Source of the DNA: Isurus oxyrinchus
Taxonomy: Eukaryota
Direction of reading: 5' to 3'
DNA length: 64,000 nt
NCBI GenBank assembly: GCA_026770705.1
Contig: JANJGN010000001.1
Span: forward strand, 152,892,001-152,956,000
How positions within the stretch are numbered: position 1 is the stretch's first letter; each line of letters opens with the position of its first letter. A program made the translations under genes and the position numbers. Shown piece after piece: positions 4,585-36,200 of this stretch. The notes beneath the pieces were generated by a model. The model had not been told where the DNA came from, did no database searches, and saw nothing but the letters and a program-made list of their open reading frames with translations.

Positions 4585-5214
4585 AGCTGAATTTTCCCAG
4601 TTGGGTCGTGATCCTGACGTCGGCCTCAATTCTGGGTCGGGAACCTGGATGTGGCCATGGCGGGATGTCACTTCCAGGAGGCGCCAATCAAGGAGCCCAA
4701 TTAATGATGGTAGGCAGCCCAGTGAAATGGGAAGCCCAATAGGAGAGCTCGTAGTGATGCCCGGTCAGCAACCCTGATGCAAGAGGTGGATGCTTCTGAG
4801 ACAGGCAGGAGACCTTAAGGATGCCTCACAATGGAGGGGCACTTTGCAGGTTTGCAAACGTTTAATGGTCACAGCTGTAACCATCATTGAAGAGGCGGTA
4901 CCCATTGACAGGATGGCTTGTGGTTAAAGCTTTGGCCAGCGCATCCCAGAGGCACCATGCTGGGCTGATGGAGAGGAGGCATCTATGGCCCTCTAATCTG
5001 CCATGGTGGGACCACCTCAAGTTAAGTTGATGGGCTCCGGCATCAATGGGGCCCAGGACACTATTGGGAAGATCCTGGTGTCAGTGACATCTCTCTATTA
5101 GCCCAGTAATGGGACTGATTGACTACCTGCCAATTGACTCAATGTGCTTTTTTACAGTTTTGCTCCTGGTCACATCTCATAACCCGCTTCCATAGGAGCG
5201 GGAAAGTTCTTTCC
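4585..5214. mobile_element. MITE-like non-autonomous DNA element
   Basis: Termini gctgaattttccc...gggaaagttc resemble the GGG(C/T)NGAATTTT TIR class seen throughout the window. Confidence 0.45.
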
Positions 5215-5841
5215 AATGAATGAGGGATCACCCCTCTCATATTGCAGTGTGCCGTTAATCTGGTCATTCAAACTGAGTGGGAAGGATTTTGTACTCAGCA
5301 GCAAACAAATAGCACCAGCCATTTGTTACATTTGCACTGGTCCATTGACTTTCTACAGGCTTTTGCAGTCTAAGTTCCTCTTAGCTAAACATCCAAGAAA
5401 TGTAGTATGCTTTATAGATGATGAGAGCCCTGTGTGAACAAGACAAACAACTGTTCACCTCCTTACCCAGTCAGATTGAAGAATCATTATCCAGCAGCAA
5501 AATCTCAGATAAAGAGAGGAAAAAAGATTGGAATAAGAGAGAGATAAAAGAGACAGAAAGAAAAAGTTTAAAAATTGATCTATATTACAAAAAATTGACA
5601 ATCATTCAAATATGAAGGAATGAGACTCCACATTTAGTGTGTGCCAGCAAGGCTGTTTGGCAGTAACCTCATTGTTACTTCTGTTGCAATATCCGATCCA
5701 TTAATTCACAATCATAATTTTGTGTGGACATTATTGAGAGAAATTTATGTGCCAGGCTCGCTACAAATATAAAGTTGTTTCTATCCTTGTGTTTTGATCT
5801 AACAGTCACTGTTCTATTATTACCATATATGTCATTCATAG

Positions 5842-5957
5842 ATACATTAGTGAACTGCATGTGGTTCGAGTAAAGGGAACAGAAGGTGGAATTTATACAT
5901 TTTTTGCTTCAAATTCTGATTCCAATTCATCAGTTTCATTTGATGTGCACATAAACA
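5842..5957 (+). CDS. KIT: KIT exon 7 equivalent (Ig domain 4, second half); absent from the ORF track
   Basis: catag|A TAC...AAC A|gtaagt, 116 bp, phase 2 to 1. [38 protein letters not shown] versus KIT [26 protein letters not shown]. The D4 homotypic-contact motif R-x-K-G-T-E is retained. Confidence 0.95.
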
Positions 5958-6022
5958 GTAAGTTGAAGATTACCTGTAAATTGTCACGTGACAAATGTTA
6001 AGAAGAGATCATTGGTTCATTT

Positions 6023-6835
6023 AGGCCTGAATTTTTGCTCCTGGATTAGGAGCACTGAGTCGGGACAAGTCGGCTTCAGTGTGGGATGGTGGACGGGGCA
6101 GGTTGAGGTTGCAGTGGGCACAGGATGGAGTTTGGCCATTCTGCTGGGCGCAGATTGGAGGTGGCCACAGGGGCTGCCACGTGCTGAGGCAGGCTGTTTA
6201 AAAGGCCTGCCATTGTCTTTTGAGACACAGTCCCACTTCTTTCCTTAAATTTTAGGCCCTCTAGCCCTCATCCTTCACACTCCATCACACCTTCGCCCAC
6301 TCATCATGCCCCATGCCACCCCCATGGCCCCTTATAGTCCCATGTCAACATAATGCCAGCCTATTCCCCCTCCCATCACCCTTTGCCCTTATGCCCTCCA
6401 TGCCAACTCACCCACTATCCATCATGGGCAGACCTCAGGAGCCATGTTTAAATAAAATAAAATGAAGGACTAAATATCTATTACAGAATTTACTAGGGTG
6501 AAAAAACACACCCATTCATGAAAGCCCATTCAAAACTCTGACACTTGTAAAAGCAAATAAGACTTGTATTTATAACTGCACTCAAAGACAGCTAATCTTT
6601 GAATAACCTCTTTGAGCTGTCAATCAAACTATTAAGTTAGAACCTCTGCTTAGGTAATTATAGGTTGTGGAAAGCAGCCAAGCATTAATAATGACATAAT
6701 GATAGCCCTTGGAGAAAATTCAGAAAGCAGCTATTGTATCTAATAGAACATATTTTTATTAAACTCTCACTGACACAGGCAGGCTGATTTGTTTTAAATT
6801 TTTAATGGGCTGGGGATTGAAATAAATTCACACCT
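6023..6835. mobile_element. MITE family A copy (truncated)
   Basis: Starts ggcctgaatttt. Internal blocks (gcagacctcagga, aaagcccattcaaa, gagctgtcaatc) recur at 23700-25628 and 38238-41903. Confidence 0.65.
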
Positions 6836-7379
6836 TAGGGCAGGAATTTGCGTTCGGTGAGTGGGCGCGCGCCCGACCTGCTCGAGAGTTAAATGATGCC
6901 CACAATCAAGGTTAAGGCTCAAAAGTCTGAAATATGAGAGTCCTTCTCTTGTTTCTTTTGTTAAGATAGGAGTCCCATTTGCTATTTACTAACTCATTAG
7001 AAAATTATCTCATTCCTCTTGAGCTTTGAAAAATACAAAGGAGCAAGTTTGAAATTCTTTTATCTAATCCTGCCAGCGTCCTTCAGCTGAAAATTTCAAG
7101 GCTGGAATCTTGTCTACCTTAACTTTTTAAACTTTTTCTATGATACATTCCCTGCGGACACAAAATATTTTGAGTCTATCTTCTTTATACTCTTTCCTCA
7201 ACTCTGATATCCCCTTTCCCTTCCAACGGTTAAAAAAGTTACAAAATAATAAATTAATAATCCAACAACTTTGCTGTCCAAAGGCCCCACTTCCCACTAC
7301 GTGATAAATGATCCAATTATCATATTCACTCTTCCTTCCGCCTGGTAGAGTTAAAAATGCTTCATTTTTATGTCTGAAG

Positions 7380-7485
7380 AAACTCTGTTTCACTCTCCAC
7401 AGGTGCTGTCGGACCTGCTTTGAGTTTTTCCAACATTTTTTGTTTTTATTTCAGATATTCAGCATCTGCAGTATTTTGCTTTTAT
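7380..7485 (+). mobile_element. Short Penelope-derived tail
   Basis: ctctccacaggtgctg...gacctgc...ttttattTcaga...cagcatctgcagtattttgc, homologous to 63190-63285. Confidence 0.65.
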
Positions 7486-7515
7486 CAATTTTATGTCTCA
7501 TGAGATTGCTCTCAT

Positions 7516-8200
7516 GGCTAGGATTTTTAGCTCGGCAAGCGGAGGCGGGCCCTGCTCGCCAAGGTTTAAAATAATGCGGGGTGACGTCGGGTGTGTGTCC
7601 CAACATCACTGTGCATCATTTAGATTTTCAGTTCAGCAGGCACGCAGCCAACTCGGCTGCACACCCGCCAAACTGTCAAAGGCCTATTAAGGCCATTAAA
7701 AAACTAATTAAAGCAATAAACTGAGCTGCCTGCCCAACCTTATTGGCGGACAGGCGAAGAGCCCAGGCGGCCTTCACATTTTTCATGGAACCTCATCCAC
7801 GGGCAGGATTAGGTTTTGTGAAATGTTTATAAATTGAACAAAAATTTTTATACGAATTCATTGACTAGTCCCAGCTCATGTGACACTGTCATATGAGGGG
7901 ACATGTCTTCAAATGTTTTTTTTTTCTTTATTTACCTTTTTAAAACATAAACTAATCTCCTTGAGGCACAGAGGTGCCTCAGGGAGATTTCTGCACTCTT
8001 TCATGCACATGCCCTGACTCAGGGAATTCCACCCCCCCACCCACCCACACAGAGAGCGCTTAGTGCTTCTGGGCACGCATCACGTTGGGTGGGCCTTAAT
8101 TGGCCGGCCCGTGTAAAATGGCAGCGTGGACCCGATCGGGGGCACTGACCGGGTTCGCGCCTGCCCCGCACAACCCCCCCCGACGGGGAAAATTCTCCCC
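7516..8200. mobile_element. Harbinger-derived MITE family B, full length
   Basis: CAT|ggctaggatttt...aaaattctcccc|CAT (3-bp TSD). Three internal hairpins. Ends homologous to the Harbinger at 44726-48542. Confidence 0.8.
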
Positions 8201-8643
8201 CATGTTTCCTCTGCATCTCATCATTTTCTGGTGTTCATCCATCTGATGTTATGATCCCTATTCCACTCCTTCCTTGTACATTTCATCATTTTATGTACAG
8301 TTTCTTTCACCTTAATATCTTCCCTGACTTTCTCACATATGAAGACTGTATATGGTGAATATGATAATAGATATTATTTTATATAATATAAATATATATA
8401 TTTACTGCATCATTCTAATCTTGCTTTGTAATTAACTAGATTGCAAAATGACTTAACTAGAAGCTGATTATGTACAACATATCTGTCTCATGCAACAATA
8501 TTGGTAACAGCTAAAAACACTCTGATTTGATTCTCACCATAAAATTTTACTATTCATTAATATAATACGCAACATTGACTCTCAGATATCTTCAATGTGC
8601 TGTCAAGAACACCAATAATGTTGTTTATTCTACTATATTGCAG

Positions 8644-8758
8644 GCAGCCCGGAGATAATTACTATTGAAGAACCCAAGCCAGGTCACGTTCGATGTGTAG
8701 CAATAGGATTTCCAAAGCCAAAAATAAAGTGGCTTTATTGCCCTGGACCACAGAAACG
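8644..8758 (+). CDS. KIT: KIT exon 8 equivalent (Ig domain 5, first half); absent from the ORF track
   Basis: ttgcag|GC...AAA CG|gtaagg, 115 bp, phase 1 to 2. SPEIITIEEPKPGHVRCVAIGFPKPKIKWLYCPGPQKR versus KIT [38 protein letters not shown]. Confidence 0.95.
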
Positions 8759-9080
8759 GTAAGGAATATGACCTGTAATTCATCTTATTTAAATGATGGA
8801 AATGGAGGTTAAGGATGTCCTTGCATTTCTTTTCAGAACAATAAAATTTATAATAAATTTGTCATTGTAGTGTCCAATGTTTTGGTGATGTTACTGTTAG
8901 AATGTTCTGGGAGGCTCGAGTTGCGCTTGTTAGTGTATCTGTAATTGACTTATATGAAGTACGTTAGCAGAGAGAACGGAATAAAACAAGTAGATTATAT
9001 TATTAGTGCAAAAAAGCATGAAATAAAAGATTAAAGTGTGCAATTTTTATGGCAATATTTTTCTTGAAAATACACATACA

Positions 9081-9203
9081 GGCCGGGATTTTCTGGCCTT
9101 GCTGTGCGGGAACCGCTGTGTGCGGGATGTGGTGGACCAGCCAAAAGACTTCCGGCAGGGCTGGAAAATCCAGGCGGTGGGGGAAGTTGGAAAATCCTGG
9201 CCA
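9081..9203. mobile_element. Small MITE
   Basis: ACA|ggccgggattttc...gaaaatcctggcc|ACA: TIRs with a 3-bp TSD. Confidence 0.7.
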
Positions 9204-10151
9204 CAGATATTAACACCATAATGGTGCACAGTGATCACCATGTTCTATCCCAACTGTCCCATTTAAGTATTTACAAACTAGCTAAACCTGCATTGTCAAT
9301 TTTCCTGATAGTAACAAACTGACTTAGGTTTGTAAATGGATCAGAGAAAGAGTTATTGCAGTCTGAATTAATGGATGTTTTTGTTATGCATTTTGTAATG
9401 ACTTTTCTGCCTTTATTAGCCGAGATCCTTAAGATTGCGCTCATCGGTGTGTAGCCAGCTCCTTACAGCTTTGACAATATCTTCATTTGCCCTGATAGCT
9501 AGATAACCAAGGTAACAAATAGAGAATGTTTTAATACTATTGCATCTATCCTGTGCCTCATCTACAATATCTTACTCATACCTTCAAAAGAGAAAAGCGT
9601 CACAGCATCAAAATTTCAAACTTCAGCTAAGTAAATTTATTGAACAGCAATAAGCTAAGTAATAGTAATACAAGATTAATATATTTAGAGTAAATGTACT
9701 ACACATCCTTCTGAAAAACAAAACAATAAATGTCCCTGATTTCTATTCAAAGGTATTATTTTATAATAACCTTTACATATCCAATTTTTATAGTTTACTA
9801 CCAGTGCAATCTAAGCACCCTATCCCACCTCTTTGAACAGCTCAGACTGACTCAGTGATTTAACAATCCACAGTCACAAACACCCACCAAATCGTTGTGC
9901 ATTTGAGTTGCCTTCACTTAATTTTGAAAGTAGCTGCCAGTCGTACATATAATTAAATATGCGATGCAATAGGTTTTTGTTTGAATTGCCCTGGTTTCCT
10001 TTTCCAGCTGGCAACCTCGAAGACAATTGAACAATTTTCACAATATTTGTATTGTGTTAGGTTGTGGACTTGTTTTTGAATGCAGGCAGTTTTTAAATTG
10101 CCTTGCCTGGCATTTCTGTCACAGTTCTTTGGTAATAGCCCCTGCAGAGAA

Positions 10152-10801
10152 CTTTGGAATGTGCCAGTATGCAACACTCGGTCGGGGACAACTCTTTGCG
10201 CTGGAAGACCAACAAGTTACGGGCAGACCAAAGAGTGTCTTTCGGGCGAGGTGATGATCCTTCAGCTGCAGTTGATGTTTGTCTCGGTGTGTGTCCCTGG
10301 GAACAGCCCGTAGAGCACAGAGTCTTGTGTCACAGAACTGCTCGGGATGAACCTCGACAGAAACCACTGCATCTCTCTCCAGACCTTCTTTGCAAAGACA
10401 CAATCTACAAGGAGGTGAACAATGGGCTCTTCCCCACCACAGCCACCTCGACGGGCAACGTGCCGAGGGGATGAGACTCCTGGCATGTAGGAAGGATCTG
10501 ACAGGGAGGGCTTCTGAGGGATGCACTAAAGCTTGGGGCAGCTGCCGCAAAGGCGCAATGGGGAAGGGTCGCTGCCTAAGATCTTTCTGCCACAGTGCAC
10601 CGAGGGGCTGGGAACTGTGAAGAGCCCCTCGGGATGTACAGCTCAAAATGAATGTGTAATATTCATTGCTTGTACTGATACACCTTGTGATTCATGTTGT
10701 AAAAGTTGAACCTGATTGTATTTTTGTGATGGTGATTTTGAAATGGTTTGAAATGTTGTTGAAGATATTTTATGATTAAAGTATATTTTTGCAAAAAAAA
10801 G
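10152..10801. mobile_element. Tx1/L1-clade LINE 3' end with 5' inversion
   Basis: Minus part encodes a CCHC-like region (CGGEEPIVHLLVDCVFAKKVW). Plus part encodes the ORF2 C-terminus LRDALKLGAAAAKAQWG, then a 3' UTR and A-tail. TSD agcccctgcagagaa at 10137-10151 and 10802-10816. Confidence 0.85.
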
Positions 10802-11037
10802 AGCCCCTGCAGAGAAAAACACAGAAGGGCCAATTTAGCTATTTTCCCAGGTTTTCTACTGACCTTTCACCTAAATTAATGGGTGAGGTTAGGGTTAGGA
10901 GGGGGAGATCATGAGGACCTAATGAAAGTCCTCTCCCTTACGTATTGTCACTCAATTAAAGGAAATGTTATCCAAGCTAAACTAAACAAGAATTCTTCAT
11001 TTTAGCAGATTGTCATTGGCCATATTATTAGAAATAT

Positions 11038-11250
11038 TTGGAATACTCTACCCCAAAGAGCTGTGGATGCTAAGTCATTGAATATATTCGAGACAGAGAT
11101 AGATAGATTTTTGGATACTGAGGAAATTGAGGGAAATAGCGATGGAGCAGGAAGGTGGAGTTGAGATCAACCATCATCTTGAGTGGTGCAGCAGGCTTGA
11201 AGGGCCAAATGGATTTACTGCTGCTCCTATTTCTAATGTTCTTATGTTCT
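11038..11250 (+). mobile_element. CR1 LINE 3' end abutting the KIT exon 9 acceptor
   Basis: agagctgtggatgc...gagatagatagatttttgg...gcaggcttgaagggccaaatgg...ctcctatttctaatgttcttatgttct, homologous to the CR1 ends at 14290-14520, 36150-36340 and 48700-48800. Confidence 0.85.
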
Positions 11251-11256
11251 TTACAG

Positions 11257-11447
11257 GTGCTCAGACACACCCATGGCAACAGCAGAAGAATTACACTGGA
11301 CAAACAGAATAATACACCGGCCCCATTTTGGAAGGATTGAAGTAGAAAGCATTCTTAACACCAAGGAACTGAACAGCAACATTACGGTGGAGTGCCTGTC
11401 ATCCAACAGTGTTGGCGAGAATCGTGCAATCTATCAGATGAAAGGAG
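11257..11447 (+). CDS. KIT: KIT exon 9 equivalent (Ig domain 5, second half)
   Basis: ttacag|G TGC TCA...GGA G|gtaata, phase 2 to 1. CSDTPM...PHFGRIEVESILNTKELNSNITVECLSSNSVGENRAIYQMKG versus KIT CSAS...[32 protein letters not shown]. Confidence 0.92.
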
Positions 11448-11709
11448 GTAATAACATTCTAAATGAAAGTACATATCAAACCCAAGTAAATAATGCTTTT
11501 GCATTAAAATACTGAGAATATGGCGTGCCTTAATGATTTGTGGGTTGAAATTGCACTTTATGATATTACCAACAAGGTGAAGGATGAAATCTCTGTGTTA
11601 TTTTAGCACAATGCAATTTTGTGGTGTCTGGAAAATGCCTGAACAATTTAATACAGTACATTTCCCTGCCATTTAACTCTTCTGCTCTGTGGACCTCCTG
11701 ACTTTTTTC

Positions 11710-12030
11710 AGTCCCCTCCTTTAGGGTGTTGTTGCAGACCCACATCAGCATTTGACCTATGTGACAGTGAGCCGGGACGTGTTTGTGAAGTTTTCAAAAT
11801 TTATTTCATTATTTTATAAAACTTTCAGGAAACCTCATCCCACTCGTGGATGAGGTTTCCTGAGAAACGCGAAGGCCTTTGGGCTCTTCACTGCCCGCCA
11901 GCCTTAAAGTTGGATGGGCAGCATTGTTAATAAGTGAAATTACTTTTTTAATAGGCTGTTGACAGTTCGGCGGGTGCACAGCTGCCTCTGGTGCGTGCCT
12001 GCCAAACAAAATATCAAAATGCCCCATGAA
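11710..12030. mobile_element. MITE family B fragment
   Basis: Contains the family hairpin ggaaacctcatcccactcgtggatgaggtttcc and ccgccagccttaaagttgg. Confidence 0.65.
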
Positions 12031-12044
12031 ATTATTCAAAGAAT

Positions 12045-12267
12045 AGGAGAAGAGTTCCCATCATGGTGCTTAGGCTAATGCTTTACCCCTTACTCAATAT
12101 GACTAAACCAGATTATCTGGTCATGATCACATCATTGCTGCTTGTAGGGAGTTGCTGTGCCCAAATTGGCTTCCACGTTCTCTGCATGACAACAGAAACT
12201 ACACTTCAAATTTACTTATTGGCTGCAAAGAACTTTGTGATGTTCAGAGGTTGTGAAAGCTGCTATG
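12045..12267 (+). mobile_element. Deu-domain SINE (SacSINE1/AmnSINE-like) 3' part
   Basis: cagattatctggtcatgatcacatc...gttgctgtgcccaaattggc...ctacacttcaaa...ttggctgcaaag...tgtgaaag resembles the Deu-SINE core and tail (recalled consensus). Confidence 0.6.
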
Positions 12268-14289
12268 CCACTGCTCGAACCTGGTGCTGCTGGAACTACA
12301 GAGCTGCCTGCCATCCGATTGAATGGCAACTCTCTAAGGCTTCTTTTCCAGATGCATGCCCGATGTCATCACGCATCATTTTATGCGTCAACGTGTTGGG
12401 CCTTCCCATGCATGCCAACCGGAAGATTCAGCCCCAGATGTGGGGGAGGAGGTAATCCTCACCCTAAGTCAGTTAATGCTCCAGCGTATGGTAAATGGCT
12501 GCAGAGCGGGGATTCAGTGACTGCATTGGGCATTGACTTTGGATTTATACAATCAGTATACTGTTAGTTATGAAGCAAGAAATCATATTGCATGACTGTT
12601 ATAAGTAAATGAACCCACAGTCTTAACTGCTAAAGCAGAACCCTAGCTTATTTGCACCATCTAAAACATTTTAACTTGAAGATTTAATAAGAAGATCTAT
12701 AAAGAGACAACTGTGCACAATTATTCCAAAAAAGCCTTGGGTGGGAAAACTTGTTTGCAGCGCTATGCAGACTACGTCAATTCACCAGGGGCAGGTGGCA
12801 GCATGGGCTTTTATCTGCATGGCCGGCATGTTTTCTCCAATGTTATCAGCAAAGGAATGTGCATGTAAACGGAACACTGCTCTTTAGTTGTTAGCGCAGC
12901 AATAACATAGAACATGATGTTCCTAATGATGGCAATGGGTATGAATAGGTATTGCAGTCCCTGGAAAACAGCACCCATTGATGTCTCAAAGGTATTGTTA
13001 CTGCAACCACTGCTTCTCCTTTTTAACTTGAACAAGTCTCTAATGAGCAAACTGTGCTGCCCAAATTTTGGTTTGGCTGGGATCCTAGATTATTTGGTTA
13101 ACATTTGGTGGTTTGCTGATGTCAAATTCAAAACCTTGCAATGGACGTTTTCAGTACATAAGAAACATTAAATCAGTTTGGCATATTAGATATGTTTATT
13201 CTAGTTTTATCTAGTTTTGTGATTACACTTGGGCATCCTTCACTCAGCCACAGTCAATCTGTAACTGGATCAACACTGAAGATCAATAAGGTAAAGATGT
13301 GTGTCTGCTAGAACAAGAGGGAGTGGTGGGAGTGCAACAAATTTTCCAAATGTGACATTGAAATTTTGGGCCATGACTTCCGAGCTTCGGGGCAGTGTAC
13401 CTGGGGGGGTACCGCAAAGATGTGCTGGGGCACCACCTTCCACAACCACACTGGAAGTTCCCAGGTAAGGATTGCACAGCAATTGCCCGGGAAGTTCAAA
13501 CTTCTGATGGCTTCTCAAAGGCTGGACCTTTAAACTTGCCTGCTTTACAGCACTAGTGCCGTAAAAAAGGGACGCTGCATGCCTGGACAAATGGCCGTGG
13601 GAACCCGCTGCACCGCACAGATCTTACTTGGCCTGAGTTGGAAGGTTGGGTGAGAGAGGAGCGGCTGCATTTCCTGGTAACTAACTATAAGCGGAATGGC
13701 AATCCGATTCAATTGTCACTCCACCAGAAGTTACGGTCCATTCCCTATTTCCTAGAAGATGCAGCCTAACACATGATTGTCTAGATAGCCTCTCCTGCTT
13801 GTATTTTTATTACTGTCAGAGCATGGCGCCTACTGTATGTGCCCAAGAGAAAGCGTTTAGATTTGAAGTAGGAGAGTAGCTTTTCTATAGTGGAACATCT
13901 CAAGGAATTCACACATTCTCCCACCATAACTTCAAAAGAAGATTATCACAAATGCCTGGAGAAATAGTATAAATGGCTAAAAATCACCATTTGCTTTGTT
14001 TCTCCAGAATTTTCACCTAACTTATCATGGGAGATTGGGAGAATGTTGTGGAAATTGTCCTTCATTGTGTTAATGCTATATCCTCTCCACAATCAGTTGG
14101 CTTTCTGTATGCGTTTTGATTAATTATTATTGAAGCTTTAAAATTTAACTAAAAGAGAACTATAGTGGTTGGCCAGTGCACGCACTGCGCAGTTAGCCTG
14201 ACTTTCATGAGACTTATGACCTGCCAAGTGAGCTGAAGGGTACATTGATATCTGACCCCAGCACACAGCACACAGACATAGAGATCCAC

Positions 14290-15875
14290 TCGCCACAAGA
14301 CCAGAAAAGGTAGGAGCAGAAGTAGGCCATTCAACCCATCGAGTCTGCTCCACCATTCAATGAGATCATGGCTGATCTGATAATCCTCAACCCCAATTTC
14401 CTGCTTTTTTCCCATAACCCTTGATTCTCTTACTGATTTAAATCTGTTTATCTCAGCCTTGAATATACCTAACAGCCCAGCCTCTACAGCCCTCTGCGGT
14501 AACGAATTCCACAGATTCATTACCCTCCGAGAGAAGAAATTCCTCCTCCCTGTTTTAAATGGGTGACCCCTTACTCTGAGATTATGCCCTCTGGTCGTAG
14601 ATTCTCCCACAAGGGGAAGCAACCTCTCAGCATCTACCCTGCCAAGCCCCCTAAGAATCTTATGGCAGAATATTGCCATTGGTGGGCGGTGGTGGGCCTG
14701 ACACACCAACATGTAAAATGATGCGTGATGACATCAGGCGTGCATCCTGGCGCCATCCTGAGTCATTTCGGTATTTTGTTCAGCGGGCGCGCGCCGGAGG
14801 GGGCATGAACCCGCCAAACTGTCAGTGACCTATTAAGGCCATTAAAAAAGTAATTAAAGTTGTTGACAACACTGCCTGTTCAACCTTAAGGTTGGCGGAC
14901 AGGCGAAGAGCCCAGACGGCCTTCATGTTTTTCAGAAAACTTCATCCACGGGTGGGATGACGTACCTGAAGCTTGTATAAAATAAATAAATAATTTTCTT
15001 GACTTCACAAATATGTCCCAGCTCATGTGACACTGTCACATGAGGGGACATGTTTAAATAATTGTTTACTTTATTATTTAAAATTTTTTATGATCTACAT
15101 AATCTCCTTGCCTCAGGGGAATTGCTGCACTCTTTCGCATGCATGCGCAAAACAGTGCAGGCCCAGAATCTCCCTCCTCCCCCCACCTGCACAGGTAGTG
15201 TCGAGTGCTACGAAATGCTTATTACGCTGGGCAGGCCTTAATTGGCCCGCCCACATAAAATATAGCCGCGCAGCCAACCGATCGGCTCCGCGCTCGCCCC
15301 TGCCTCTTCCACCTAGTCTGCCCGACATAGGTGACATTCAGCCTTATATGTTTTAATAAGGTTGCCCCTCATGCTTCTAAACTCCAGGCCCAACCTACTC
15401 TGCCTCTCCTCATAAGAAAATCCCTCCATACTCAGGATCAACCTAGTTAACCTTCTCTGGACTGCCTCCAGTGCCAGTATATTTTTCCTTAGGTAAGGGG
15501 ACCAAGGCTGTTCACAGTTTTCTAGGTGTGGTCTAATTAGTGCCTTGTATAGTTTTATCAAACTTCCCTTTTTTATGCTCCATTCCCTTTGAAATAAAGG
15601 CCAACATTCCATTTGCCTGAACCTGCTGAACTTGTATGTTAGCTTTTTGTGATTAATGCATGAGGACTCCCAAATCCCTCTGTGCTGTAGCTTTCTGCAG
15701 TCTTTCTCCATTTAAATAATGTTCAGCTCCTCTATTCTTCCTGCCAAAGTGCATAACCTCACATTTTCTGACATTATATTCCATTTGCCAAGTTTTTTGC
15801 CCACTCACTATACCTGTCTATATCCCTCTGCAGACTCCTTATGTCATCATCGCTATTTGCCTTCCCACCTATTTT
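14290..15875 (-). mobile_element. CR1 LINE 3' part, interrupted by a MITE at 14664-15344
   Basis: LYKALIRPHLE...WSPYLRK..LALEAVQRR and VDAERLLPLVGES.TRGH...WNSLPQRAVEA motifs. The sequence joins across the MITE (aagaatcttat/tatatgtttt). Confidence 0.88.
14664..15344. mobile_element. MITE family B copy
   Basis: TAT|ggcagaatattg...acattcagcct|TAT, with the family hairpins. Confidence 0.8.
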
Positions 15876-18800
15876 GGAGATAGTTTGCTGCCAGTTGCTT
15901 ATTTGTACTCAGCAGCCTCATCTCTGTTTGGGGCTTTATTCTTCACTTTTCCAGGCTTCACTTCAGGATTCATTGGTGTCTCCAAGGCATCCAGAGGATT
16001 CAGACCATGTGGACCCTTTCAGAGATCAGACACCCTTCCGTTGCCCTGGTAATGGGGATTGTGGTCTCCACTGGTGGCACCTCCTCTGAGGAGGAAGAGA
16101 GGGGCAGAAAGGGGAGGATGCTAGGTGTCCCAAAGCAGCTTCCAGGGGAGCAACCAGAGGGAGGAGAGGCGCGGGCACAAGGGGTGCAGGACCAGCAGGA
16201 ATTCCTAGAAGGAAGGAGCTGCAGAAGACATCACTATCCTGCTGCCAGGGTTTACAGGCAGTGATGCAGCTACCTCAATATGTCTGAAGTGCAATGCTGA
16301 AGAAGGCGCTGCCTCTCAAGGGAGACCGTGACCTCCATTTGTCAGATGATTGGGCCTGAGATCAGCTCCAACTGTGTGGGTGGACACCCCATGACTGCGG
16401 CTCTGATTGTCACAGAGGCCCTCAACTTCTATGCCTCCTGCTCTTCCAGGGATCAGTGGGGGATCTGTGTGGAGGGTCCCAATCAGATGTCTACAGTTGC
16501 ATCAAGCTGGTGACAGAAGCTCTGTTCAGGCGAGTACTGACCTTTATTCTTTACCGTACGGAGGAGGCCAGCCAGGCTGAGCGAGCCAGAGGCTTTGCCA
16601 CGATTGCTGGGTTCCCCTGTGTCCAGAGTGCAATAAGCTGCATGTATGTGACCATCAAGGCGCCAGTGAGTCAGCCGGGTGCCTTCGTCAACAGGAAGGG
16701 ATTCCACTCCATGAACGTGCAGATAGTGTGTGACCACAGGATGCAGATTCTGCAAGTCTGTGCAAGGTACCCTGGCAGTTCTCATGACGCGTATATCCTG
16801 AGACACCGCCAGGAGCTGAATGGATGGCTGCTGGGTGACAAGGGCTATCCCTTGAAGAGGTGGCTCATCACGCCTCTCTGCCACCCAAGAACAGAGGCAG
16901 AGCAGCGTTACATTAGGAGCCATGTCTCCACACGGGTGGTGGTAGAGAGGACCATGGGTCTTCTCAAGATGCACTTCCGATGCCTGGACCATTCAGGGGT
17001 GCACTACAATACATCCAGAGCGGGCGTCACTGATAGTGGTTGCATGCTGCACTCTCCACAATCTGGCACTGGCAAGCGCGGACCCACTGGAGGAAGAGGA
17101 TCTTGACGCAGGTCCACAGACCACAGAGGATGGATCCAATGGTGAGTCCAAAGACGGGCACGATGAGGAGAACACTGAGGGTGTGGAGGCAGACCTCGGT
17201 AAGCTCTAGGGAGGTAGGGACACCAGAGACGCCTTGATCCAATGTTCCTTCAGCTAGGCTACCAAAGATCTGCTTCCACCTCATGCCAGGGCTGCTGCCT
17301 CCATCCTGGATGTCTGAAATGACACTTTCATTTGCACCCAAATTCCACTCAATGCCTGTATGTCCAGCATTACATACTGGTCTACCCTGCACCAGAAAGA
17401 AAAAAGGTGAAGCATACTCAGACCATCAGAAGCAAAGCAAATTTAATGTTATTGTCACACTGAAAGCAAATGCCATTACCATTATTGGTCCACATCAGCA
17501 GACATATAAACCAAACATAAATGAACAGAAAATCACCTGTGAACTATCCCTTTTGTGCTCATGGTGCCTTTAACTTACATTTCTGAGTGTTAAGTCTTGG
17601 TACATCCCCTCCCCATACCCCTCACACACACACCCCACCCCCCCCCCCCCTCCCCACCCCCCCAATGCTGGCAGCGGCATTGGGAGCAGCTTGCTGACTC
17701 TGGTGTCTTGTTGACCTTGATGACCTTAGCGGTCATCCTCTGGTCATTGAATTTGTGCTGGCCCTGCCTTGGACAGAGTGGCCTGTGCCAGGGCTGGCAT
17801 CTCCCCAGTCATCACAACCTCATCAGATGCCATGGTCACTGGTGGGGGGTTGGGGGGGGTGGTGGTGGGCGGAGGAGCTGCTGCCGTCATCCAGAGCACC
17901 CTGAGAGGAGCCTGCAGAGACAACAAGTGGTTGGTGCACCCACATGAGGTCGCCCTGGACCTCCCTGCTCACCATTGATGGACCGGCACCTAGTTGGGAT
18001 ACTGGTGCCTCATCCATCTCCCAGGAGGGCTTGCAGTTCCATGCACAAACCCGGAAACCCCTCTTTCTATTTCTTGAGCTGCCTCTCCATGAGAGTCACC
18101 ACTCTCTCAACGGAGGAGGCAGTGCGCTTTGTCATGAAGGTCAACACAATGCTCATGCTCCACATGGACCCCTCAAAAACGGAGACCCTGGCACACAGGC
18201 CCTCATGGATCTCCGCCAGATCCTCCCACACATCCTGCCGGACATCCAGCATCTGCCACCTAATGGACAACTCCAGAGGCTCATCATCTACCTTCGACTG
18301 AGCATTGTCTTGGTCTCCAGCTAACCTCCAACTGCCAGTGCCCATGGGCACCCTCTGCCTCAGCCTGCACCTCAATCGAGTGTGAAGTGCCCTCACCAAT
18401 GTGCACCAACATTCTAGCCATCAATCTAATGCCCATCCGGGTGCTGGTATTTGCACTGGTGCCTGCTTCAGAGAGCGGGTGTGACGCGCGCAAATGATGC
18501 CTAGTGGTCCTTCGACGTCAGGGATGGCCCTTCAGGGTCCAGAGAGTGAGTGCGTGCTGGCAAATCTAAAAGGGAGAACAAGGTCATGTCACTAGTTAAA
18601 GCCTTCACACTGTCACTGTGCATGCCAGGCACGCTGGTGAGACAATGGAGATCTGCATCATGGTGCCATCGTCTTTCAATGATCAATGGGGGCTCCAGGT
18701 TTGAGACTCCAATCAATGAAGAGACTACACTAGAATGGTTGCACAATCAGAAACCCTCACCTCTGTGCACTGCACTCTTGCCTTTGTCTGGCACCCCCGC

Positions 18801-19179
18801 CTCTCCATGCCCGGTTGCATGGGAAGCATGCTGGCTCTCTAGCTCTAGGGTGTCCTGCTCGAATCTGGTGAGCGGCAGCAGTTGGGCTGCCCTCTGCCTG
18901 TCCGTGACTTCTCCAATTAGTTATGGCTTGTCTTCTCCTGAATGGACAGAGGAGCATTGATTAGTCCACTCTCTACCTGCAGCGCCATTGCATCCTGGCC
19001 AACCCCAGCTGAGGAACACCTTGCAGGGCACATCTGAATCGTGGCCCTCAAGCTGCAAGGCACTCAGTCCAAGCAGCCAGCCTGAAATCATGTCAGGGGC
19101 CGATAGCAGCGACGAGCCGTTTCCCATCCGCTCCCAGGCCTGCCAACCATACCCGCCCGCCGATCTCAAAATTCTGGCT
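15872..19179 (+). mobile_element. PIF/Harbinger transposon copy 1 (left end deleted)
   Basis: HARBI1-like transposase pseudogene on + and Myb/SANT gene remnants on -. Right TIR aaaattctggc. Inverted homolog of 44726-48542. Confidence 0.9.
16007..17275 (+). pseudogene. Harbinger DDE transposase, disrupted
   Basis: GFATIAGFPCVQSAI, FVNRKGFHSMNVQIVCD, ARYPGSSHDAYIL, LLGDKGYPL, RVVVERTMGLLKMHFRCLD. In-frame stops and frameshifts upstream. The GAID-type first Asp appears altered. Confidence 0.88.
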
Positions 19180-20284
19180 TATGTTTCTTATTGCCCTTTT
19201 CTTCACTTTCTTTACCTTATTCTGGCTTTTTCTCAATTTGACTTTACAATATTTCTCTTTCTATTTCACAGGTCATTTGACCAGGGATACCACGAGTGTT
19301 TTTCATTCTCCAGCTGGAAAGCGAGAAAAGAACAAGAGAACATTAAGAACACAAGGCCCATCTCAAGATTCATTAATGATCCTTTGTTTCCTCTCTCTCT
19401 CTATGGAAAAAAAAAACAACAGAAGTGCTGGGAAACAGGCAAAGTCTAAATGTAGGAATTTGGGATCCTAGGGCACAAGGGTGGCAGGATGTGATCTCCT
19501 ATGTGAGGTTGCTGCCAAAATAATGGTAAAGCTTGTGGCATTTGGCATGATTTTTGTGTAAAAATGATATAGCAATTTCAAGTGAGGAGCATGTGCAGTT
19601 AAATGCCAATATCCAAAAGTTGCTGTCCAAGTTGTGCCTTTCCACCAATAGCTTTGGAAAAACAGAATTCTTCTGTCTGCCTCACCATTGACATGCATTG
19701 AAAGGTATGGGGTGCTGTAATTGTATGATGAATATGAACTAAACTCACCACAATTTAAGATTTGTCATTACAAACATAAGTTCCCTTTTAACAATTTGAT
19801 AATAGTTACTATCTGCCAATCAGCCTCTCTGGCTCTGAAAATGAATTATTTCAAGTGTGGAGCCTCATTCCTTCTGCTATTAAATGTTGTTGGAGATACT
19901 AAAAATGTTATTTCTTTTACCTTTCTTTACCTCTCTTTTCTGAATCTCTCTCAATCTAATCTTTTCGTTTCTTTTTCTATACTATAATTTGATATTGAAT
20001 TTATCCCTGTAATTTACATATCCTTCTCAATTCTTCTGCTGTTAATTTCATAGTCCTTTAATCTGATTGGGTAAGAAATTACACAGTTTCATGCTCTTTT
20101 CACTCAGGTCTCTGGTACCGGGCATCCCTCACTTCAACATTATCAGCTTACACTTTCAGTAACTTGCCACACAAAAATACTAAAAACCTAAAATATGCAC
20201 AAAGAAGTCTAACTAGTGACAGATGCCTTGCTACAGAAAAGCCATTATATATAGAATTGATATTTTATGTTGAGCACAAAAAGA

Positions 20285-21257
20285 AGGAATTTTCAATCCG
20301 AGGTTGGGAATCCAACACCTGAATCATTTCCAGGCCCTGACCCTGCTCCCTGTCTGCATCCCTAATGTGACACTATTTTAAAATTGGATCCCCTAATTAG
20401 GCCAGAGGGAAACTCGGCATCCAATTAATGGTGTCAGGCACTGCCAAGAGGCAGAAGCTGACTCAAAAGTGCAATGCTCAAAGGCAGATGGGAGCTATGT
20501 CTCGGCTTGCTGTTGACTTACAGAATGGAGGAGACAGGAGATCAGAGGGCCAGCAACCTCATGACACAGACAAGTGGCCAAACAGTCAATGAACAGGTAC
20601 TTGACCTGCTCTGTGTAAATATTTCCAACAATTTTACTTCAGCAGAAACATCACCTAATGGTTCCCCTCATTGCAAGCAACAATTATGCACTAATGAGCA
20701 CCAGATTGCTTGCTTTTTTTGATCTGTGATTTGAAAATCACCTTCTGGCCCTCCCCAGCCAGCTAACATACATTACAAGGAGCTTAATTAGCAATTAATT
20801 GGAGGCGAGTGGGTTGCTGGCTCCCCCTCCCACCATGCCACTGGGTGCTGTGGCGCGCACCTGTAATCCTGCTACTGGGAGGCTGTGGTTGGCGGATTGC
20901 TTGAAGTCGGGAGTTCTGTTCTGCTGTCGTCTGTGCCGATTGGGTGTCCACACTAAGATCGGTGTCCACATGGTGCTCTTCGGGGAACTGACGATCATCA
21001 GGTGTGTTAAAGAGGGGTGAACAGTCCCAGGTCGGGAACGGAGCAGGTCAAAGCCCCCATACTGATCAGTAGTGGGATGGCACCTGAGAATCGATGCAGC
21101 TGTACATGCCTGACCAATATATAAAGACCCCTCCCACCATACCTTTGCTTTGAAAATTGCAGCGCCTTGCAGAGGCGTCAGAAGACTGACCAGGTTCGCT
21201 ATTTTCAAAGCACTCCCACTATAGACCTTGCCCCCTTAGGCTATTGAAAATCAAACC
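20285..21257. mobile_element. MITE-like element hosting the 7SL retrocopy
   Basis: Inverted termini attttcaat...attgaaaat, with internal taatta motifs typical of the local MITEs. Confidence 0.5.
20840..21131 (+). ncRNA. RN7SL: 7SL / SRP RNA full-length retrocopy (probable pseudogene)
   Basis: Colinear with vertebrate 7SL: ctgggtgctgtggcgcgcacctgtaatcc..gctactgggaggctg (Alu domain), gggtgtccacactaag, gaggggtgaac..cccaggtcgggaacggagcaggtcaaa (helix 8, SRP54 site), ctgatcagtagtgggat, ending agacccc. Flanked by a 16-bp duplication. Confidence 0.93.
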
Positions 21258-21259
21258 AT

Positions 21260-21345
21260 TGCATTTATAACACCTTTCACAACTTCAGGACTTCCCAAAG
21301 CACTTTACAATCAATGAAGTTTAGTGGCTGTTGTAACAGTTGTAA
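21260..21345 (-). mobile_element. Deu-SINE/L2-like tail fragment
   Basis: Reverse complement of the 12200-12267 tail (gcatttataacacctttcacaac...cccaaagcactttaca). Confidence 0.55.
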
Positions 21346-21519
21346 AGTGTATCAAGTTCCGGTTTGCTCCATAGGATGGATTTACTTCTTATTGCACTTG
21401 GCCATGAAAGATCTGCTGAGTCCAGCACACACAGAACAGTCAACCTGGCAGGACCACATGATGGAGTTTACTTGATTTATTTTCACTTAAATTCACTTAA
21501 GATCTGACATATAAAGCTC

Positions 21520-21752
21520 ATGGCCATGAAACTATAATTGATTGTCTTAAAAACCCATCTGGTTCACTAATGTCCTTTAGGGAAGGAAATCTGCCATCCT
21601 TACCTGGTCTGGCCTACATGTGACTCCAGATCCACAGCAGTGTGGTTGACTCTTAAGTGCCCTCTGAAATGGACCAGTAAGACACTCAGTTAAAGCCCAG
21701 TTAGGGATGAGCAACAAATGCTGGCTTTGCCAGTGATGCCCATGTCCCATGA
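21520..21752 (+). mobile_element. SINE 3' half (same family as 1520-1980)
   Basis: aaaacccatctggttcactaatgtcctttagggaaggaaatctgcc...gtgactccag...aaatgctggc. Confidence 0.8.
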
Positions 21753-21815
21753 AATAATAAAAACAACAATTAATGCATTCCAAAACTACTAAGATCTCAT
21801 CAAAACAGAATCAAA

Positions 21816-23699: not shown

Positions 23700-25628
23700 G
23701 TGGATTTTTGATCTCAAGGCGGATGCACAGAGGCTGAAAATTTTCCAGTGCACTGAACCCGCCTCAGAAAAATCTGTCCCACATAGCGGGATCTTTGTTC
23801 CTGTTGGGGGGGGTGAGGGTGCATGCTATTGTGGGTTGGACACTGATTGGGAAGTGGCCACAGGGGCTGATCACTTTCAAGGCAGGCTGGTTAAAAGTCC
23901 CACCTCGGTTTCTGGGACTTCATTTCAATCGTGTTGTTAAACATTAGCCCTCATCCCTCACACTCCCTCAACTCCCCACCCACTCGCCATGCCCCATCCA
24001 TGCCAACCCATGGCCACCACCCACCCCACTGGCCCCATACCCTCCATATGACCCATGCCAAAGCATGCCCCTTTATAATCTTTCTACCAAATTAATGCCA
24101 ATTCATGAACCCCTCGATCATCCCCACGGTACCTTACAGCCCCTATGCCTGCTTATGCCAACCCATGCTCCCACTATCACCCTTTACCCTGACACCCTCC
24201 ATGCCAACTCGCCCAGTATCCATGATGGACAGACCTCAGGAGACATGCTGAGATAGAAGAAAATAAATTTCTAAGTATCTATTACAGCCTTCACTGTATT
24301 AAAAAAAAAATTCTCATTGATAATAGCCCATTCAAAACATTTAAATTCCCTCAAGTACTTAATCCTATATAGAAACAAACATTTGTATTCATAACCTCAC
24401 ATCAAAAGCAGCTAATCCGTTAATCCTCTTGGAGCTGTCAATCCAACTGTGAATTTACAGCCCCTGACTGTGATAATGACAGGTTGTGTAAGCACTCAAG
24501 CAGTAATAATACAATAATGATAGCACTTAAGGTTACGTCAACAAATAGCTTTTGATACTGCAAGCACATATTTTTTTTCAACTCACAGAAACAGGCAGAC
24601 CTTTTTTCAAAACTTAAATAACTTGATATCTTGAGAGTTCTATATACCTTAACTGCCCTTTACAAGCATTTACATCTACTCTAAAAAAAACCTAAGTCAC
24701 ACACTGCGGGATAAGGTCCTTACTGCAGTGAAAATAGGATCTGTTTAAACTCAGCAATGGGCTGAATTTTGCCGTTGGCAAGCAGGCAGTGGGGCCTGCT
24801 TACCACCGTGCAAAATGACATGGAGTGACGTCGGGGGGAGCCCCCGATGTCATCCCGCCCCATTTAAATCTTCAGGAAGGCGGGGGTGCAGCAAAATCAG
24901 CAGCGGGCCCGCCGACCTGTCAATGGCCAATTGAGGCCATTGACAGAATCATTAAAACAATTAAAGGACCTGCCCATCCAACCTTAAGGGCTTCTGATAA
25001 TACATGAAACCCCATCCACCGGCAGGATGGGTGTTCATGTAGGGATTTAAAAAGTTTAATAAAGTTTTAGTGTAAATTATGAACATGTCCCATCTCATGT
25101 GACATTGTCACATGAGGGGGACATGTTAAGGATTTTTTTTTCCTTCTATTTTCAATGTTTTTAAAACTGTCAGCGATCTCCCTGAGGCAGCACTTAGCCT
25201 CAGGGAGATGTGTGCTCTCTCATGAGCATGCGTGAAAGAGTGCACTCTCGCTTTTGGGGAATTCCACGCCCCGCACAGGCTTCTGGTGGTCGTCACACTG
25301 GGTAGGCCTTAATTGGCCCGCCCACGTAAAATGACGGCAGGGCCCGCTTCTCTGGTGGGCATCAGCTCCCCACACGCTGGAGATTGGGTCAAGCCTGCTG
25401 GAGATTGAGTCAGGCCCTCCCGCCCAGAAGGCAGAAAATTCTGCCCTATGAATTCAAATGGCCCTGCTGAGTTTGGCTTTCCCCCATGTGTGAGTCATGT
25501 CCAGTGTCCATTCCCCTACCGCTGAAAATAGGATCTGTCAAAAATGGGAGTGGGACTTTTGGATTCAGGTTCCCAGCATCATGTTGGATAAGCCATGGAG
25601 TCTCCACAATTCCACAAAAATCTAGGCC
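23700..25628. mobile_element. MITE family A copy containing a family B insertion
   Basis: tggatttttg...aaaaatctaggcc. Colinear with 38238-39341. Confidence 0.7.
24759..25446. mobile_element. MITE family B copy
   Basis: AAT|gggctgaatttt...aaaattctgccc|TAT. The empty site is visible in the paralogous family A copy near 39181-39205. Confidence 0.82.
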
Positions 25629-33289: not shown

Positions 33290-36200
33290 CAAACTTAAAG
33301 AAAAAGCATATAGCTACACAAAGATGGGTGGCAGGTCAGAAGATTGGTAAAAATAGAAAGAACAGCAAAGAATGACAAAAAGATTATTGAGGAAAAAATT
33401 GGAGTATGAGAGAAAGCTAGCTAGAAATATAAAGGTGGATGGTAAGAGTTTCTATAGATATTTAAATAAGAAAAGAGTTAACAAAGTGAACGTTGGTCCT
33501 ATAGAGAGGGAGCCTGGGGAATTGATAATGCAAAGTAGGGAGATGGCGGATGAATTAAACAGGTATTTTGCTTCGGTCTTCAATATATAGGACATGAGTA
33601 ACATCCCGGAAATAGCTGTAAATCAGGCAATGGAAGGGAGGGAGGAACTCGGGGAAATTACAATCACCAGGGAAGTGGTATTGAGCAAATTATTGGGGCT
33701 GTGGGCTGACAAATCCCCAGGTCCAGATGGATTTCACCCTAAGTTCTTGAAAGAAACGGCTAGTGAGATAGTTGATGCATTGGTTTTAGTTTTACAAAAT
33801 TCCCTCGATTCAGGGAAGGTTCAATTAGATTGGAAAATAGTGAATATAGCTCCTTTATTCAAAAAGAGAGGGAAACAGAAAGCAGGAAACTATAGGCCAG
33901 TTAGGGAAGATGCTATAGGCTATTATTAAAGATGTTATAGCAGAGCACTTAGAAAAATTCAAGGCAATCAAGCAGAGTCAACATGGGCCAGAAACTTTGG
34001 GTTGGCGTAAAATATTGCACGGTGATGTCAGGCGTGCATCCCGACGTCACCATGCGTCATTTCGATCTTTAGTTTGGCGGGCGCGCACTGAAATCAGCTG
34101 CGCGCCCGCTGAACTGTCAAAGGCCTATTAAAGCCATTTAAAAACTAATTAAAAGGATTAACAGAGCTGCTTGTCCCATCTTAAGGTTGGCGGGCAGGCG
34201 AAGAGCCCAGACGGCCTTTAAATTTATCATAAAACCTCATCTACGGGTGGGATGAGGTTTCATGAAGGATTTATAAATCAAGTAAATTTTTTTGTTAAAA
34301 ATCATTGACATGTCCAGCTTATGTCCCAGTGTCACATGAGGGGACATGTCTGAATTTTTTTTTCTTTATTTGAATTTTTAATAATGAAATTAAACTCCCT
34401 GAGGCAGTTCTGTGCCTCAGGGAGATTTCTGCACTCTTTCAAGTGCAGGCCCCAACTCTCCCTCCTCCCCCAACCTGCACAGGGAGTGCTCAGCGCTTCC
34501 AGGTGCACGTCACGCTGGGCAGGCCTTAATTGGCCCGCCCATGTAAAATGGCGGTGATCGGCTGCACGCCCACCTGCGCCCGCTCAGCACCCCCTCGACA
34601 GGGAGAAAATTCTCCACATGATTTTGTAAAACAGATCAGGTGGATGAAGTTTCCAAAAAAATCCACCTATGGATGAAGTTTCCAAAAAAATGCAAATTTT
34701 CGCCTGCCCGCCAACCGTTAGATTGGATGGGCAGCGAAAAATTCAAGTTAATTGGTTATTTAATGGCCTCAACAGGCCTTTTAATTGTCAGCAGGCACTG
34801 CCGGCTCCAGGACATGCCCGCTGACCGAACTATCACAAGACTGCACGTTGAAATCATTTCACACTCGAGCGGGTAGGGCGTGCGCCTGCCCGCCAAGCGA
34901 AAATTTCTGCCCCATGTTTAACCAGTTTATTGGAGTTCTTTAAAGGAGTCACATGTGCTGTGGATAAAGGGAAACCAGTGAATGTACTGTACTTAGATTT
35001 CCAGAAGGCATTTGAAAAAGTGCCACATAAAAGGGTATTGCAGAAAATAAAAGCTCATGGTCTAGGGGGTAACAAATTGGCATACTGGGATAGATAGGTT
35101 CTTGATTGGTAAGGGGATCAAAGGTTATGGGGAGAAGGTGGGAGAATGGGCTGGAGAAACTTATCAGCCATGATTGAATGGCGGAGCAGACTCGATGGGC
35201 TGAATGGCCTAATTTCTGCTCTTATGTCTTATGGTCTTATGGATAGAAGATTGGCTAGCTAACAGGAAGCAGAGATTTGGCATAAATGGGTCTTTTTCTG
35301 GTTGGCAGGATGTGACGAGTGGTGTGCCACAGGGATTAGTGCTGGGGCCTCAACTTTTTACAATTCATATAAATGACTTGGATGAAGGGATTGGAAGTAT
35401 GGTTGCTAAATTTGCTGACAACACAAAGATAAGTAGGAAAGTAACTTGTGAAGAGGACATAAGGAGGCTACAAAGAGATACAGGTAGGTTAAGTGAGTGG
35501 GCAAAGATCTGGCAAATGGAGTGTAATGTGGGAAAATGTGAAATTGTTCATTTTGACAGGAAGAATAAAAAAGAAGCTTATTATCTAAATGATGAGAGAT
35601 TGTGAAGCTCTGAGATTCAGAGGGATCTGGGTGTCCTAGTGCATGAATCACAAAAGGTTAGTGTGCAGGTACAGCAGATAATTAGGAAAGGTAATAGAAT
35701 GTTATCATTTATTGTGAGAGGAATTGATTACAAAAGTAGGAAGGTTATACTTCAGTTGTACAGGGCATTGATGAGACCACATCTGGAGTATTGTGTACAG
35801 TACTGGTCTCCTTATTTAAAGAAAGATGTAAATGCATTAGAAGCAGTTTCGAGAAGGTTTACTAGACTAATATCAGGAATGGGTGGGTTGTCTTATGAGG
35901 AAAGGCTAGACAGGTTAGGCTTCTATCCACTGGAATTTAGAAGAGCAAGAGGTGACTTAATTGAAAACTTTAACATCCTGAAGGGTCTTCACAGGGTGGA
36001 TGTGGAGAGGATGTTCCCTCTTGTGGGAGAATCTAGAACTAAGGGTCACTGTTTAAAAATTGGGGGTCGCTCATTTAAGACAGATATGAGGAGAATTTTT
36101 TTTCTCTCAGAGGGTCGTGAGTCTTTGGAACTCTCTTTCTCAAAAGGCAGTGGAAGCAGAGTCTTTGAATATTTTTAAGGAATACCTAGATTGGTTCTTG

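Follow-up and report, generated by a model that had tools for sequence, protein, structure and literature searches.

Retrocopies of small RNAs that end without an A-tail, the tailless retropseudogenes, were reportedly described by Schmitz in 2004. As characterized by Noll (2015; PMC5322556), they are 5'-complete small-RNA copies lacking an A-tail, flanked by target-site duplications (TSDs) of 8-35 nt that are at least 70% identical, with 2-18 nt of complementarity at the 3' junction and, as a filter applied in that study, a 3' truncation of at least 10 nt; the human target TT/WAAAAWW given there is a tendency of mammalian L1 and not a definition of the class. The same source places them in therian mammals, the anole and maize, and not in platypus or chicken, while its main text mentions no fish, zebrafish or shark, and the names searched for were likewise absent from six of its seven supplements. 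Among U snRNA pseudogenes, 25 3'-truncated U6 copies are reported for the anole (Doucet 2015; PMC4476161, Table 2), and in the template-choice model presented there the RNA anneals to the nicked target and priming takes place internally, in purine-rich single-stranded RNA and at TTTT/A cuts. The original prediction for the locus described below regarded tailless retropseudogenes as an L1-associated phenomenon described in mammals, a view that is too narrow given the anole cases (PMC5322556; PMC4476161). 7SL (SRP) RNA itself has yielded a tailless retrocopy in a primate, the chimpanzee, through mammalian L1 (Kojima 2010; PMC2912911), with one chimpanzee 7SL copy listed in the counts table of supplement 1 of that paper.

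7SL RNA has also founded repeated families. P7SL_MD of marsupials and P7SL_Cpo of the guinea pig are retroposed full-length 7SL copies that keep the S domain, carry poly-A tails and are highly repeated (PMC7245038), whereas the 7SL-derived SINE1 families, namely Alu/B1, hagfish SINE1-1_EBu (PMC7245038) and shrew-mole Urop (PMC13023118), keep the box A/B positions, have lost the central S domain by deletion and end in a poly-A or LINE-derived tail. Such SINEs had been attributed mainly to Euarchontoglires in the original prediction, and the hagfish and shrew-mole families widen that range. In addition, crocodilian SINEU and Tx1-Mar (Kojima 2015; PMC4494074) provide a system in which a Tx1-clade enzyme is proposed to mobilize small-RNA-derived sequence in trans, in repeated families with a common target, TSDs of ~16 nt and insertion into a DNA transposon.

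Here we report a decayed 7SL copy in a shark, located at 20840-21131 (+) of the window, by which we mean the whole 64-kb stretch of Isurus oxyrinchus DNA analyzed. The copy is very probably an RNA-mediated insertion made by target-primed reverse transcription. Our more specific reading, to which we assign a probability of roughly 60%, is that it is a tailless 7SL retropseudogene, a single dead cDNA of the shark's own SRP RNA made by an L1-clade (Tx1-like) enzyme. A literature search on 7SL or tailless retrocopies in sharks returned no title; subscription journals and Repbase Reports are poorly covered by such a search, and the result is weak evidence of absence.

The 7SL copy and its junctions

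A scan of the 64-kb window with the Metazoa_SRP model (Rfam RF00017) resulted in a single match at 20840-21139 (+; 203.1 bits, E 4.2e-54), which remained the only SRP match even with all Rfam matches to E 1 listed. The score is far above the gathering cut-off and the match spans model positions 1-299 of 299, interrupted only by a gap of 1 nt and two inserts of 1 nt each. No further small-RNA retrocopies were found in the window by Rfam to E 1, where the other matches comprised the tRNA-like head of a SINE (36393-36479) and two at chance level. The copy retains both the Alu and the S domain and is 5'-complete, with model position 1 at 20840. At the other end, the CCCC at 21128-21131, with which the right flanking repeat begins, aligned by eye to the Rfam consensus cccc at model positions 289-292; the copy therefore stops ~7 model positions early, if the overlap consists of the CCCC only, at a junction common to RNA and target. 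Hence the overlap of the 7SL 3' end with the target CCCC was as predicted, while the prediction of a complete 7SL homolog at 20840-21131 held for the 5' end and not for the 3' end.

The copy is decayed and dead. Its fold is no better than those of shuffled sequences (z +1.38; 185 of 200 shuffles equally stable, in a comparison for which no functional 7SL was folded as control), which indicates decay, and 29 of the 120 pairs of the model are non-canonical; some of these also occur naturally in SRP RNA, and the non-canonical pairs are especially dense in the terminal portion of helix 5. At 21122-21124 (+) three neighboring bases differ from the Rfam consensus; they break the 3' strand of helix 5 only 3 nt before the inferred priming site and may reflect decay, slippage or error-prone initiation; this cluster lies within an AT-rich stretch of the copy. 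Four of the 67 highly conserved model positions are altered as judged by eye (20987, 21036, 21059 and 21060), and the +1 base is A where the Rfam consensus has g. The copy contains 12 CpG (observed/expected 0.56, with TpG at 1.5), and CpG decay was discarded as a measure of its age, being unusable without the source gene. The positions of the internal Pol III boxes, box A at 20844-20853 (+; GGTGCTGTGG) and box B at 20912-20922 (+; AGTTCTGTTCT), each show two changes relative to the human boxes printed in PMC7245038, so that by sequence both promoter boxes appear recognizable though altered.

As originally predicted, neither a poly-A tail nor an oligo-T terminator is present: no run of at least five A occurs within 21100-21300, and there is no T4 within 70 nt of the 3' end of the copy, the first TTTT being located at 21202, 70 nt beyond it. 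Additionally, none of the CRE- and TATA-like motifs TGACG, CGTCA, TATA and TTATA was found in the 200 nt upstream (20641-20839). The absence of these four motifs and the distance to the first T4 together indicate that no genomic 7SL flank came along with the copy. These observations also bear on the alternative that the locus is a functional 7SL gene beside a chance flanking repeat, which we consider extremely improbable even though 63 of the 67 highly conserved positions are intact and the model score is so high; the missing terminator and upstream motifs, a fold no better than shuffles, the A at +1 and a flanking repeat that is not due to chance all run counter to it.

That repeat is a 16-nt direct duplication, CCCCTCCCACCAT(G/A)CC, with its left copy at 20824-20839 (+; 75% G+C) and its right copy at 21128-21143 (+), 15 of 16 positions being identical (one G/A difference) and the match extendable on neither side. 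The last base of the left copy adjoins 7SL +1, the 7SL copy is joined to it directly, and the repeat thus brackets the mature RNA exactly. When the same search geometry was applied to 2393 other positions in the window, with the simple repeat at 52300-55700 and the 7SL locus left out, the longest repeat with at most one mismatch was 12 nt and none of the 2393 positions gave 13 nt or more; the flanking repeat is therefore not a chance occurrence, and the 16-bp TSD proposed originally is confirmed. Judged from sequence, the single mismatch in 16 nt agrees with a divergence of a few percent or more. The target, which reads GCTC/CCCCTCCC, has two further sites in the window at three or fewer mismatches, neither of which is an empty host. 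The 5' junction may also be parsed as a perfect 13-nt TSD plus three extra bases, leaving the class of event unchanged.

The CCCC at 21128-21131 (+) is a firm microhomology when judged against the Rfam consensus, from which the shark's own 7SL may differ in the length of the match; CCCC occurs at 0.47% of window positions. When the sequence is placed on the model structure, the CCAC of the right repeat (21134-21137, +) is joined to GUGG at 20885-20888 by four Watson-Crick pairs, one of which is U-A in place of the consensus G-C. Should the shark RNA terminate as the complement of that strand, pairing between RNA and target would extend to ~8 of 10 nt; we regard this longer pairing as suggestive only, because it requires a 1-nt bulge (the cmscan insert at 21130), was noticed post hoc, and has a background of 20 of the 545 CCCC sites in the window that share the same continuation.

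We propose the following steps for the origin of these junctions. The ORF2 protein of a non-LTR retrotransposon would cut the bottom strand where the C-rich target begins on its left side, freeing a G-rich 3' end. Annealing of this end to the CCCC that lies a few bases before the 3' terminus of 7SL RNA (the overlap is seen in the sequence), perhaps with help from CCAC, would make a poly-A tail unnecessary and leave the last bases and oligo-U uncopied. Reverse transcription would then run to the first base of the RNA, and a second nick 16 nt downstream followed by direct 5' joining would duplicate the target, in keeping with the product seen; decay, which is evident in the copy, followed the insertion.

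A related product could in principle arise if 7SL cDNA were inserted while a staggered break was being repaired, the cDNA having come either from the particle of a retrovirus or LTR element or from a LINE acting independently of its endonuclease. The window does contain, at ~41990-42937 (-), a decayed piece of an LTR retrotransposon in which Pfam recognizes RNase H and an integrase zinc finger, and the target is without the L1 TT/AAAA consensus. Integrase duplications measure 4-6 nt, as opposed to 16 nt here, which speaks against retroviral or LTR integration. Tailless copies and endonuclease-independent L1 insertions have similar 3' microhomology (PMC2912911), but the clean 16-nt duplication, with neither deletion nor filler, is characteristic of an endonuclease that makes staggered cuts, and we consider break repair very unlikely.

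Compared with the tailless retropseudogenes of PMC5322556, the shark copy shares the 5'-complete small RNA and the missing A-tail, its repeat (16 nt, 15/16) lies within the TSD range quoted for them, and its CCCC, judged against the Rfam consensus and not a shark gene, lies within the range of 3' complementarity. It misses the 10-nt truncation filter, with ~7 positions lost and fewer if the pairing extends, and its C-rich target is unlike TT/WAAAAWW; the copy therefore behaves like a member of the class, though not a typical one. The chimpanzee copy is identical in source RNA and product class, but was made by mammalian L1. The U snRNA pseudogenes share pairing of the RNA with a nicked target and internal priming, and differ in where the RNA is primed, the shark 7SL offering a C-run in the terminal Alu-domain helix instead of a purine-rich single strand. 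SINEU offers a precedent for a Tx1-clade enzyme acting in trans on small-RNA-derived sequence, while neither repetition nor a common target is shown for the shark copy.

Likeness to the repeated 7SL families is more limited. The shark copy shares 7SL origin and box positions with SINE1, yet it runs straight into its TSD; it is not a SINE1, because the S domain is kept and a tail is absent. It resembles P7SL_MD and P7SL_Cpo in being full-length and retroposed, but it is tailless and single in 64 kb. It would nevertheless be possible to regard it as one member of a multi-copy retroposon family, P7SL_MD-like, P7SL_Cpo-like or an incipient SINE1-like one, spread from a master: marsupial full-length 7SL expansions exceed 12,000 copies (PMC7245038), both internal promoter boxes are recognizable, and some of its differences from the Rfam consensus might be the mark of a master copy instead of decay. 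We find this improbable, since the window holds one copy as compared with several each of MITE-, SINE- and LINE-type repeats, and the copy has neither a poly-A nor a LINE tail, keeps the S domain and has lost its fold. The suggestion of an incipient 7SL-derived family, made in the original prediction, consequently found no backing in a single copy per 64 kb that has no tail for re-transposition, two altered boxes and a decayed structure.

Genomic setting of the insertion

Five Kit-like exons were located at 517-11449 (+), 89-97% identical (tblastn) to a named white shark protein; an exon also matches Kit-like proteins from white shark and from basking shark at 98% identity. The five exons encode a receptor tyrosine kinase with Ig-like domains. 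The last Kit-like exon found in the window (11255-11449, +) ends 9.4 kb upstream of the 7SL copy on the same strand, and the copy therefore lies most likely in a long Kit-like intron, in the sense direction; the intron would exceed 52 kb. No later Kit exons were detected in the remaining 52 kb of the window, where the best candidate reached 8 of 14 identities, and the gene may instead be truncated.

The original prediction had placed the 7SL copy inside a MITE-like element. The candidate for such an old host is an unconfirmed element at 20281-21260 (no strand assigned) whose TIR-like ends have ATTTTCAAT in common; once the insert has been taken out in silico it measures 676 nt, and its ends near 20286 and 21257 share this 9-mer. 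The self-complementarity of the 676-nt host's arms was not significant, 181 of 500 shuffles scoring as high, and hand-picked arms were equaled in 51 of 1000. After removal of the insert, the flanks of the locus were matched by none of four nhmmer profiles derived from MITE-like repeats elsewhere in the window, and a self-BLAST of the window over 20200-21500 at E 1e-4 gave none either. The best of 23 pairwise comparisons of the host with other elements reached z 4.0 under a lenient null (two strands against one-strand shuffles), and four of the best-scoring pairs contained no convincing alignment. Taken together, these results do not sustain the placement inside a MITE-like element; the locus may still lie in an old host element of a family otherwise absent from the window.

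The same data address the possibility that 7SL and both direct repeats were captured once and then spread as DNA inside a MITE or a segmental duplication. The TIR-like ends with their common 9-mer are symmetric around the locus once the insert is removed, as this explanation would have it, but the host is not significant as a palindrome, belongs to no family in the window, and a second copy is absent from the window; spread at the DNA level is thus highly improbable. The in-silico empty site matched only 12189-12266 in the window, through a piece at ~21270-21345 beyond the downstream end of the candidate host, the two sharing 70% identity over 79 nt. We take both pieces to derive from an old SINE body similar to the Deu domain.

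Candidate enzymes in the window

In order to make a retropseudogene from 7SL RNA an enzyme has to act in trans, which is unsurprising in a shark because 14,081 mRNA retrocopies have been counted in cartilaginous fishes (preprint 10.64898/2026.06.26.734816); according to the same preprint, LINE/CR1 or LINE/Tx1 probably sustain retroduplication outside mammals. Quoted TSD lengths are 7-18 bp for L1 with a peak at 13-15, 7-15 for RTE with a peak at 10-12, 10-15 for Nimb, and a peak at 3-5 for L2/CR1 (PMC6007223; PMC4245944), and the 16-nt TSD fits the L1 clade better than RTE or L2/CR1. The original attribution to a LINE or a Penelope reverse transcriptase stands as regards RNA-mediated insertion with TSD and microhomology, and of the two named sources the L1 clade is now the leading candidate and Penelope the weaker one.

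An L1-clade insertion is present in the window at 10137-10816 (+), TSDs included. As had been proposed for the local Tx1/L1 element, it is flanked by a perfect 15-bp TSD (10137-10151 and 10802-10816, 15/15), the insert itself spanning 10152-10801 and ending in an A8 tail. Its relatives carry the Pfam domain zf-RVT; the Pfam scan covered 244 of 247 ORFs, and LINE clades are not resolved by Pfam. The Tx1 label is our own assignment, taken from a C-terminal motif. A LINE fragment in the window shares 94% identity with a protein from basking shark. The 5' segment of the insertion (10152-10513) is inverted: residues 297-417 of the shark protein P0121 are encoded on the minus strand at 10514-10150, whereas residues 422-441 and the 3' UTR follow on the plus strand from 10514, with the inversion junction at 10513/10514 and four codons lost. 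Such 5' inversions are ascribed to twin priming, in which the 3' end of the target pairs inside the RNA, and were seen in that study almost only with human L1 in human cells (PMC4245944). Most descriptions of such inversions concern mammalian L1. The local twin-primed inversion therefore indicates that an enzyme in this genome could begin cDNA synthesis with a target end annealed to an internal stretch of RNA, as the 7SL copy requires.

Furthermore, the L1-clade and 7SL target sites both have CCCCT near their start, and the G+C content of the TSDs is 75% for 7SL, 60% for the L1-clade insertion and 21-43% for three Penelope-type sites, a comparison comprising one L1-clade and three Penelope-type sites. 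The L1-clade target begins AGCCCCT, and the same string occurs within the hairpin of the element's own 3' UTR, at ~10622-10628. This hairpin (~10600-10633) would, by analogy with stringent LINEs, oppose the mobilization of foreign RNA and in that respect weighs against an L1-clade enzyme. A second point against it is that Penelope-type copies in the window likewise give repeats of 14-15 nt, and a third is the departure of the 7SL target from TT/WAAAAWW.

A Penelope-like element (RT + GIY-YIG), a rival source of the enzyme, occupies 39809-41715 (-) and has a perfect 14-bp TSD (14/14); this copy lies within a MITE-like repeat. A second long copy at 61107-63290 (+) is 94.6% identical to it, both have long open frames, and the two are young. 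The best named relatives of the Penelope ORF are from whale shark, stingray and bamboo shark. A TSD was sought at the ends of the 61107-63290 copy and no convincing repeat was found. Both long copies carry a 3' motif without an Rfam match that resembles a minimal hammerhead ribozyme. A palindromic short element at 59667-59848, derived from Penelope-type 3'-end sequence, is flanked by a 15-nt repeat (14/15), and short pieces related to it occur at 10-103, 7381-7485, 36849-36934 and 37120-37182; these are possibly a non-autonomous Penelope-derived family. The Penelope-type flanking repeats of 14/14, 14/15 and 13/14 nt agree with the 14-15 bp predicted for the window.

A Penelope-like element acting in trans on 7SL RNA would accordingly have two young copies, several short derivatives and flanking repeats of suitable length in its favor, and, because the 39809-41715 copy ends ~35-40 nt short of the other at its 3' end, internal priming is possible for it. 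The G+C content of its target repeats is far from that at the 7SL copy, however, the two long Penelope copies seem younger than the 7SL copy, and no title on Penelope-made small-RNA retrocopies appeared among the literature listed for Penelope trans-mobilization; on balance we consider this source unlikely. The same product could also have been made by another APE-type LINE (RTE or Nimb/I) not represented in the window. TSDs of 7-15 and 10-15 bp are of the right order (PMC6007223; PMC4245944) and the hagfish 7SL SINE was mobilized by an RTE (PMC7245038), but 16 bp exceeds these quoted ranges, and such LINEs are described as requiring their own 3' ends, while a LINE-derived tail is absent from the 7SL copy. 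An RTE- or Nimb-type source is quite unlikely, and an L1-clade (Tx1-like) enzyme remains the preferred one.

Significance and other repeats in the window

A single dead 7SL copy has no function to speak of, and its value is that of a footprint. What is seen here is a by-product class known in mammals and lizards, now in a shark, which is a small extension of its range with an unusual C-rich target. Tailless retropseudogenes have served as a marker of 'relaxed' L1 machinery (PMC5322556), and the shark copy together with its twin-primed L1-clade neighbor raises the question of whether Tx1-like enzymes move cellular RNAs in cartilaginous fishes; if they do, such trans-mobilization may explain the mRNA retrocopies reported there. 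We see an even chance that L1/Tx1 elements of sharks regularly give rise to tailless small-RNA copies, while a self-propagating tailless 7SL family is much less likely than such a regular by-product. A bolder version, in which a shark L1-clade (Tx1-like) enzyme primes by base-pairing at G/C-rich cuts and has spread tailless 7SL copies with the S domain as a repeated family, seems to us improbable; if true, it would take mammal-style 'relaxed' trans-mobilization back to a lineage of cartilaginous fishes whose endonuclease differs in specificity, and would open a route to a 7SL retroposon without the need of a tail. In addition, the locus could serve as a presence/absence marker among sharks.

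The window is rich in other repeats. Two related Harbinger-type DNA transposon copies (15872-19080 and 45378-48214) contain DDE_Tnp_4 and are 77-91% identical in opposite orientation, and a Myb/SANT-like frame at 44971-45285 accompanies them. One MITE-like family of ~680 nt with internal palindromes is represented by at least 10 pieces, including 7515-8200, 11745-12435, 14640-15300, 24759-25450 and 33985-34615, and a second by 6024-6835, 23830-24755 and 38239-39190. SINE pieces headed by a tRNA-like sequence occur at 36393-36760, 21540-21761 and 1675-1826, the Rfam tRNA match mentioned above being the head of the first; presumably they are of the shark HE1/V-SINE type, which they resemble. Finally, a degenerate CA/CT-rich simple repeat extends over ~3 kb at 52560-55534.
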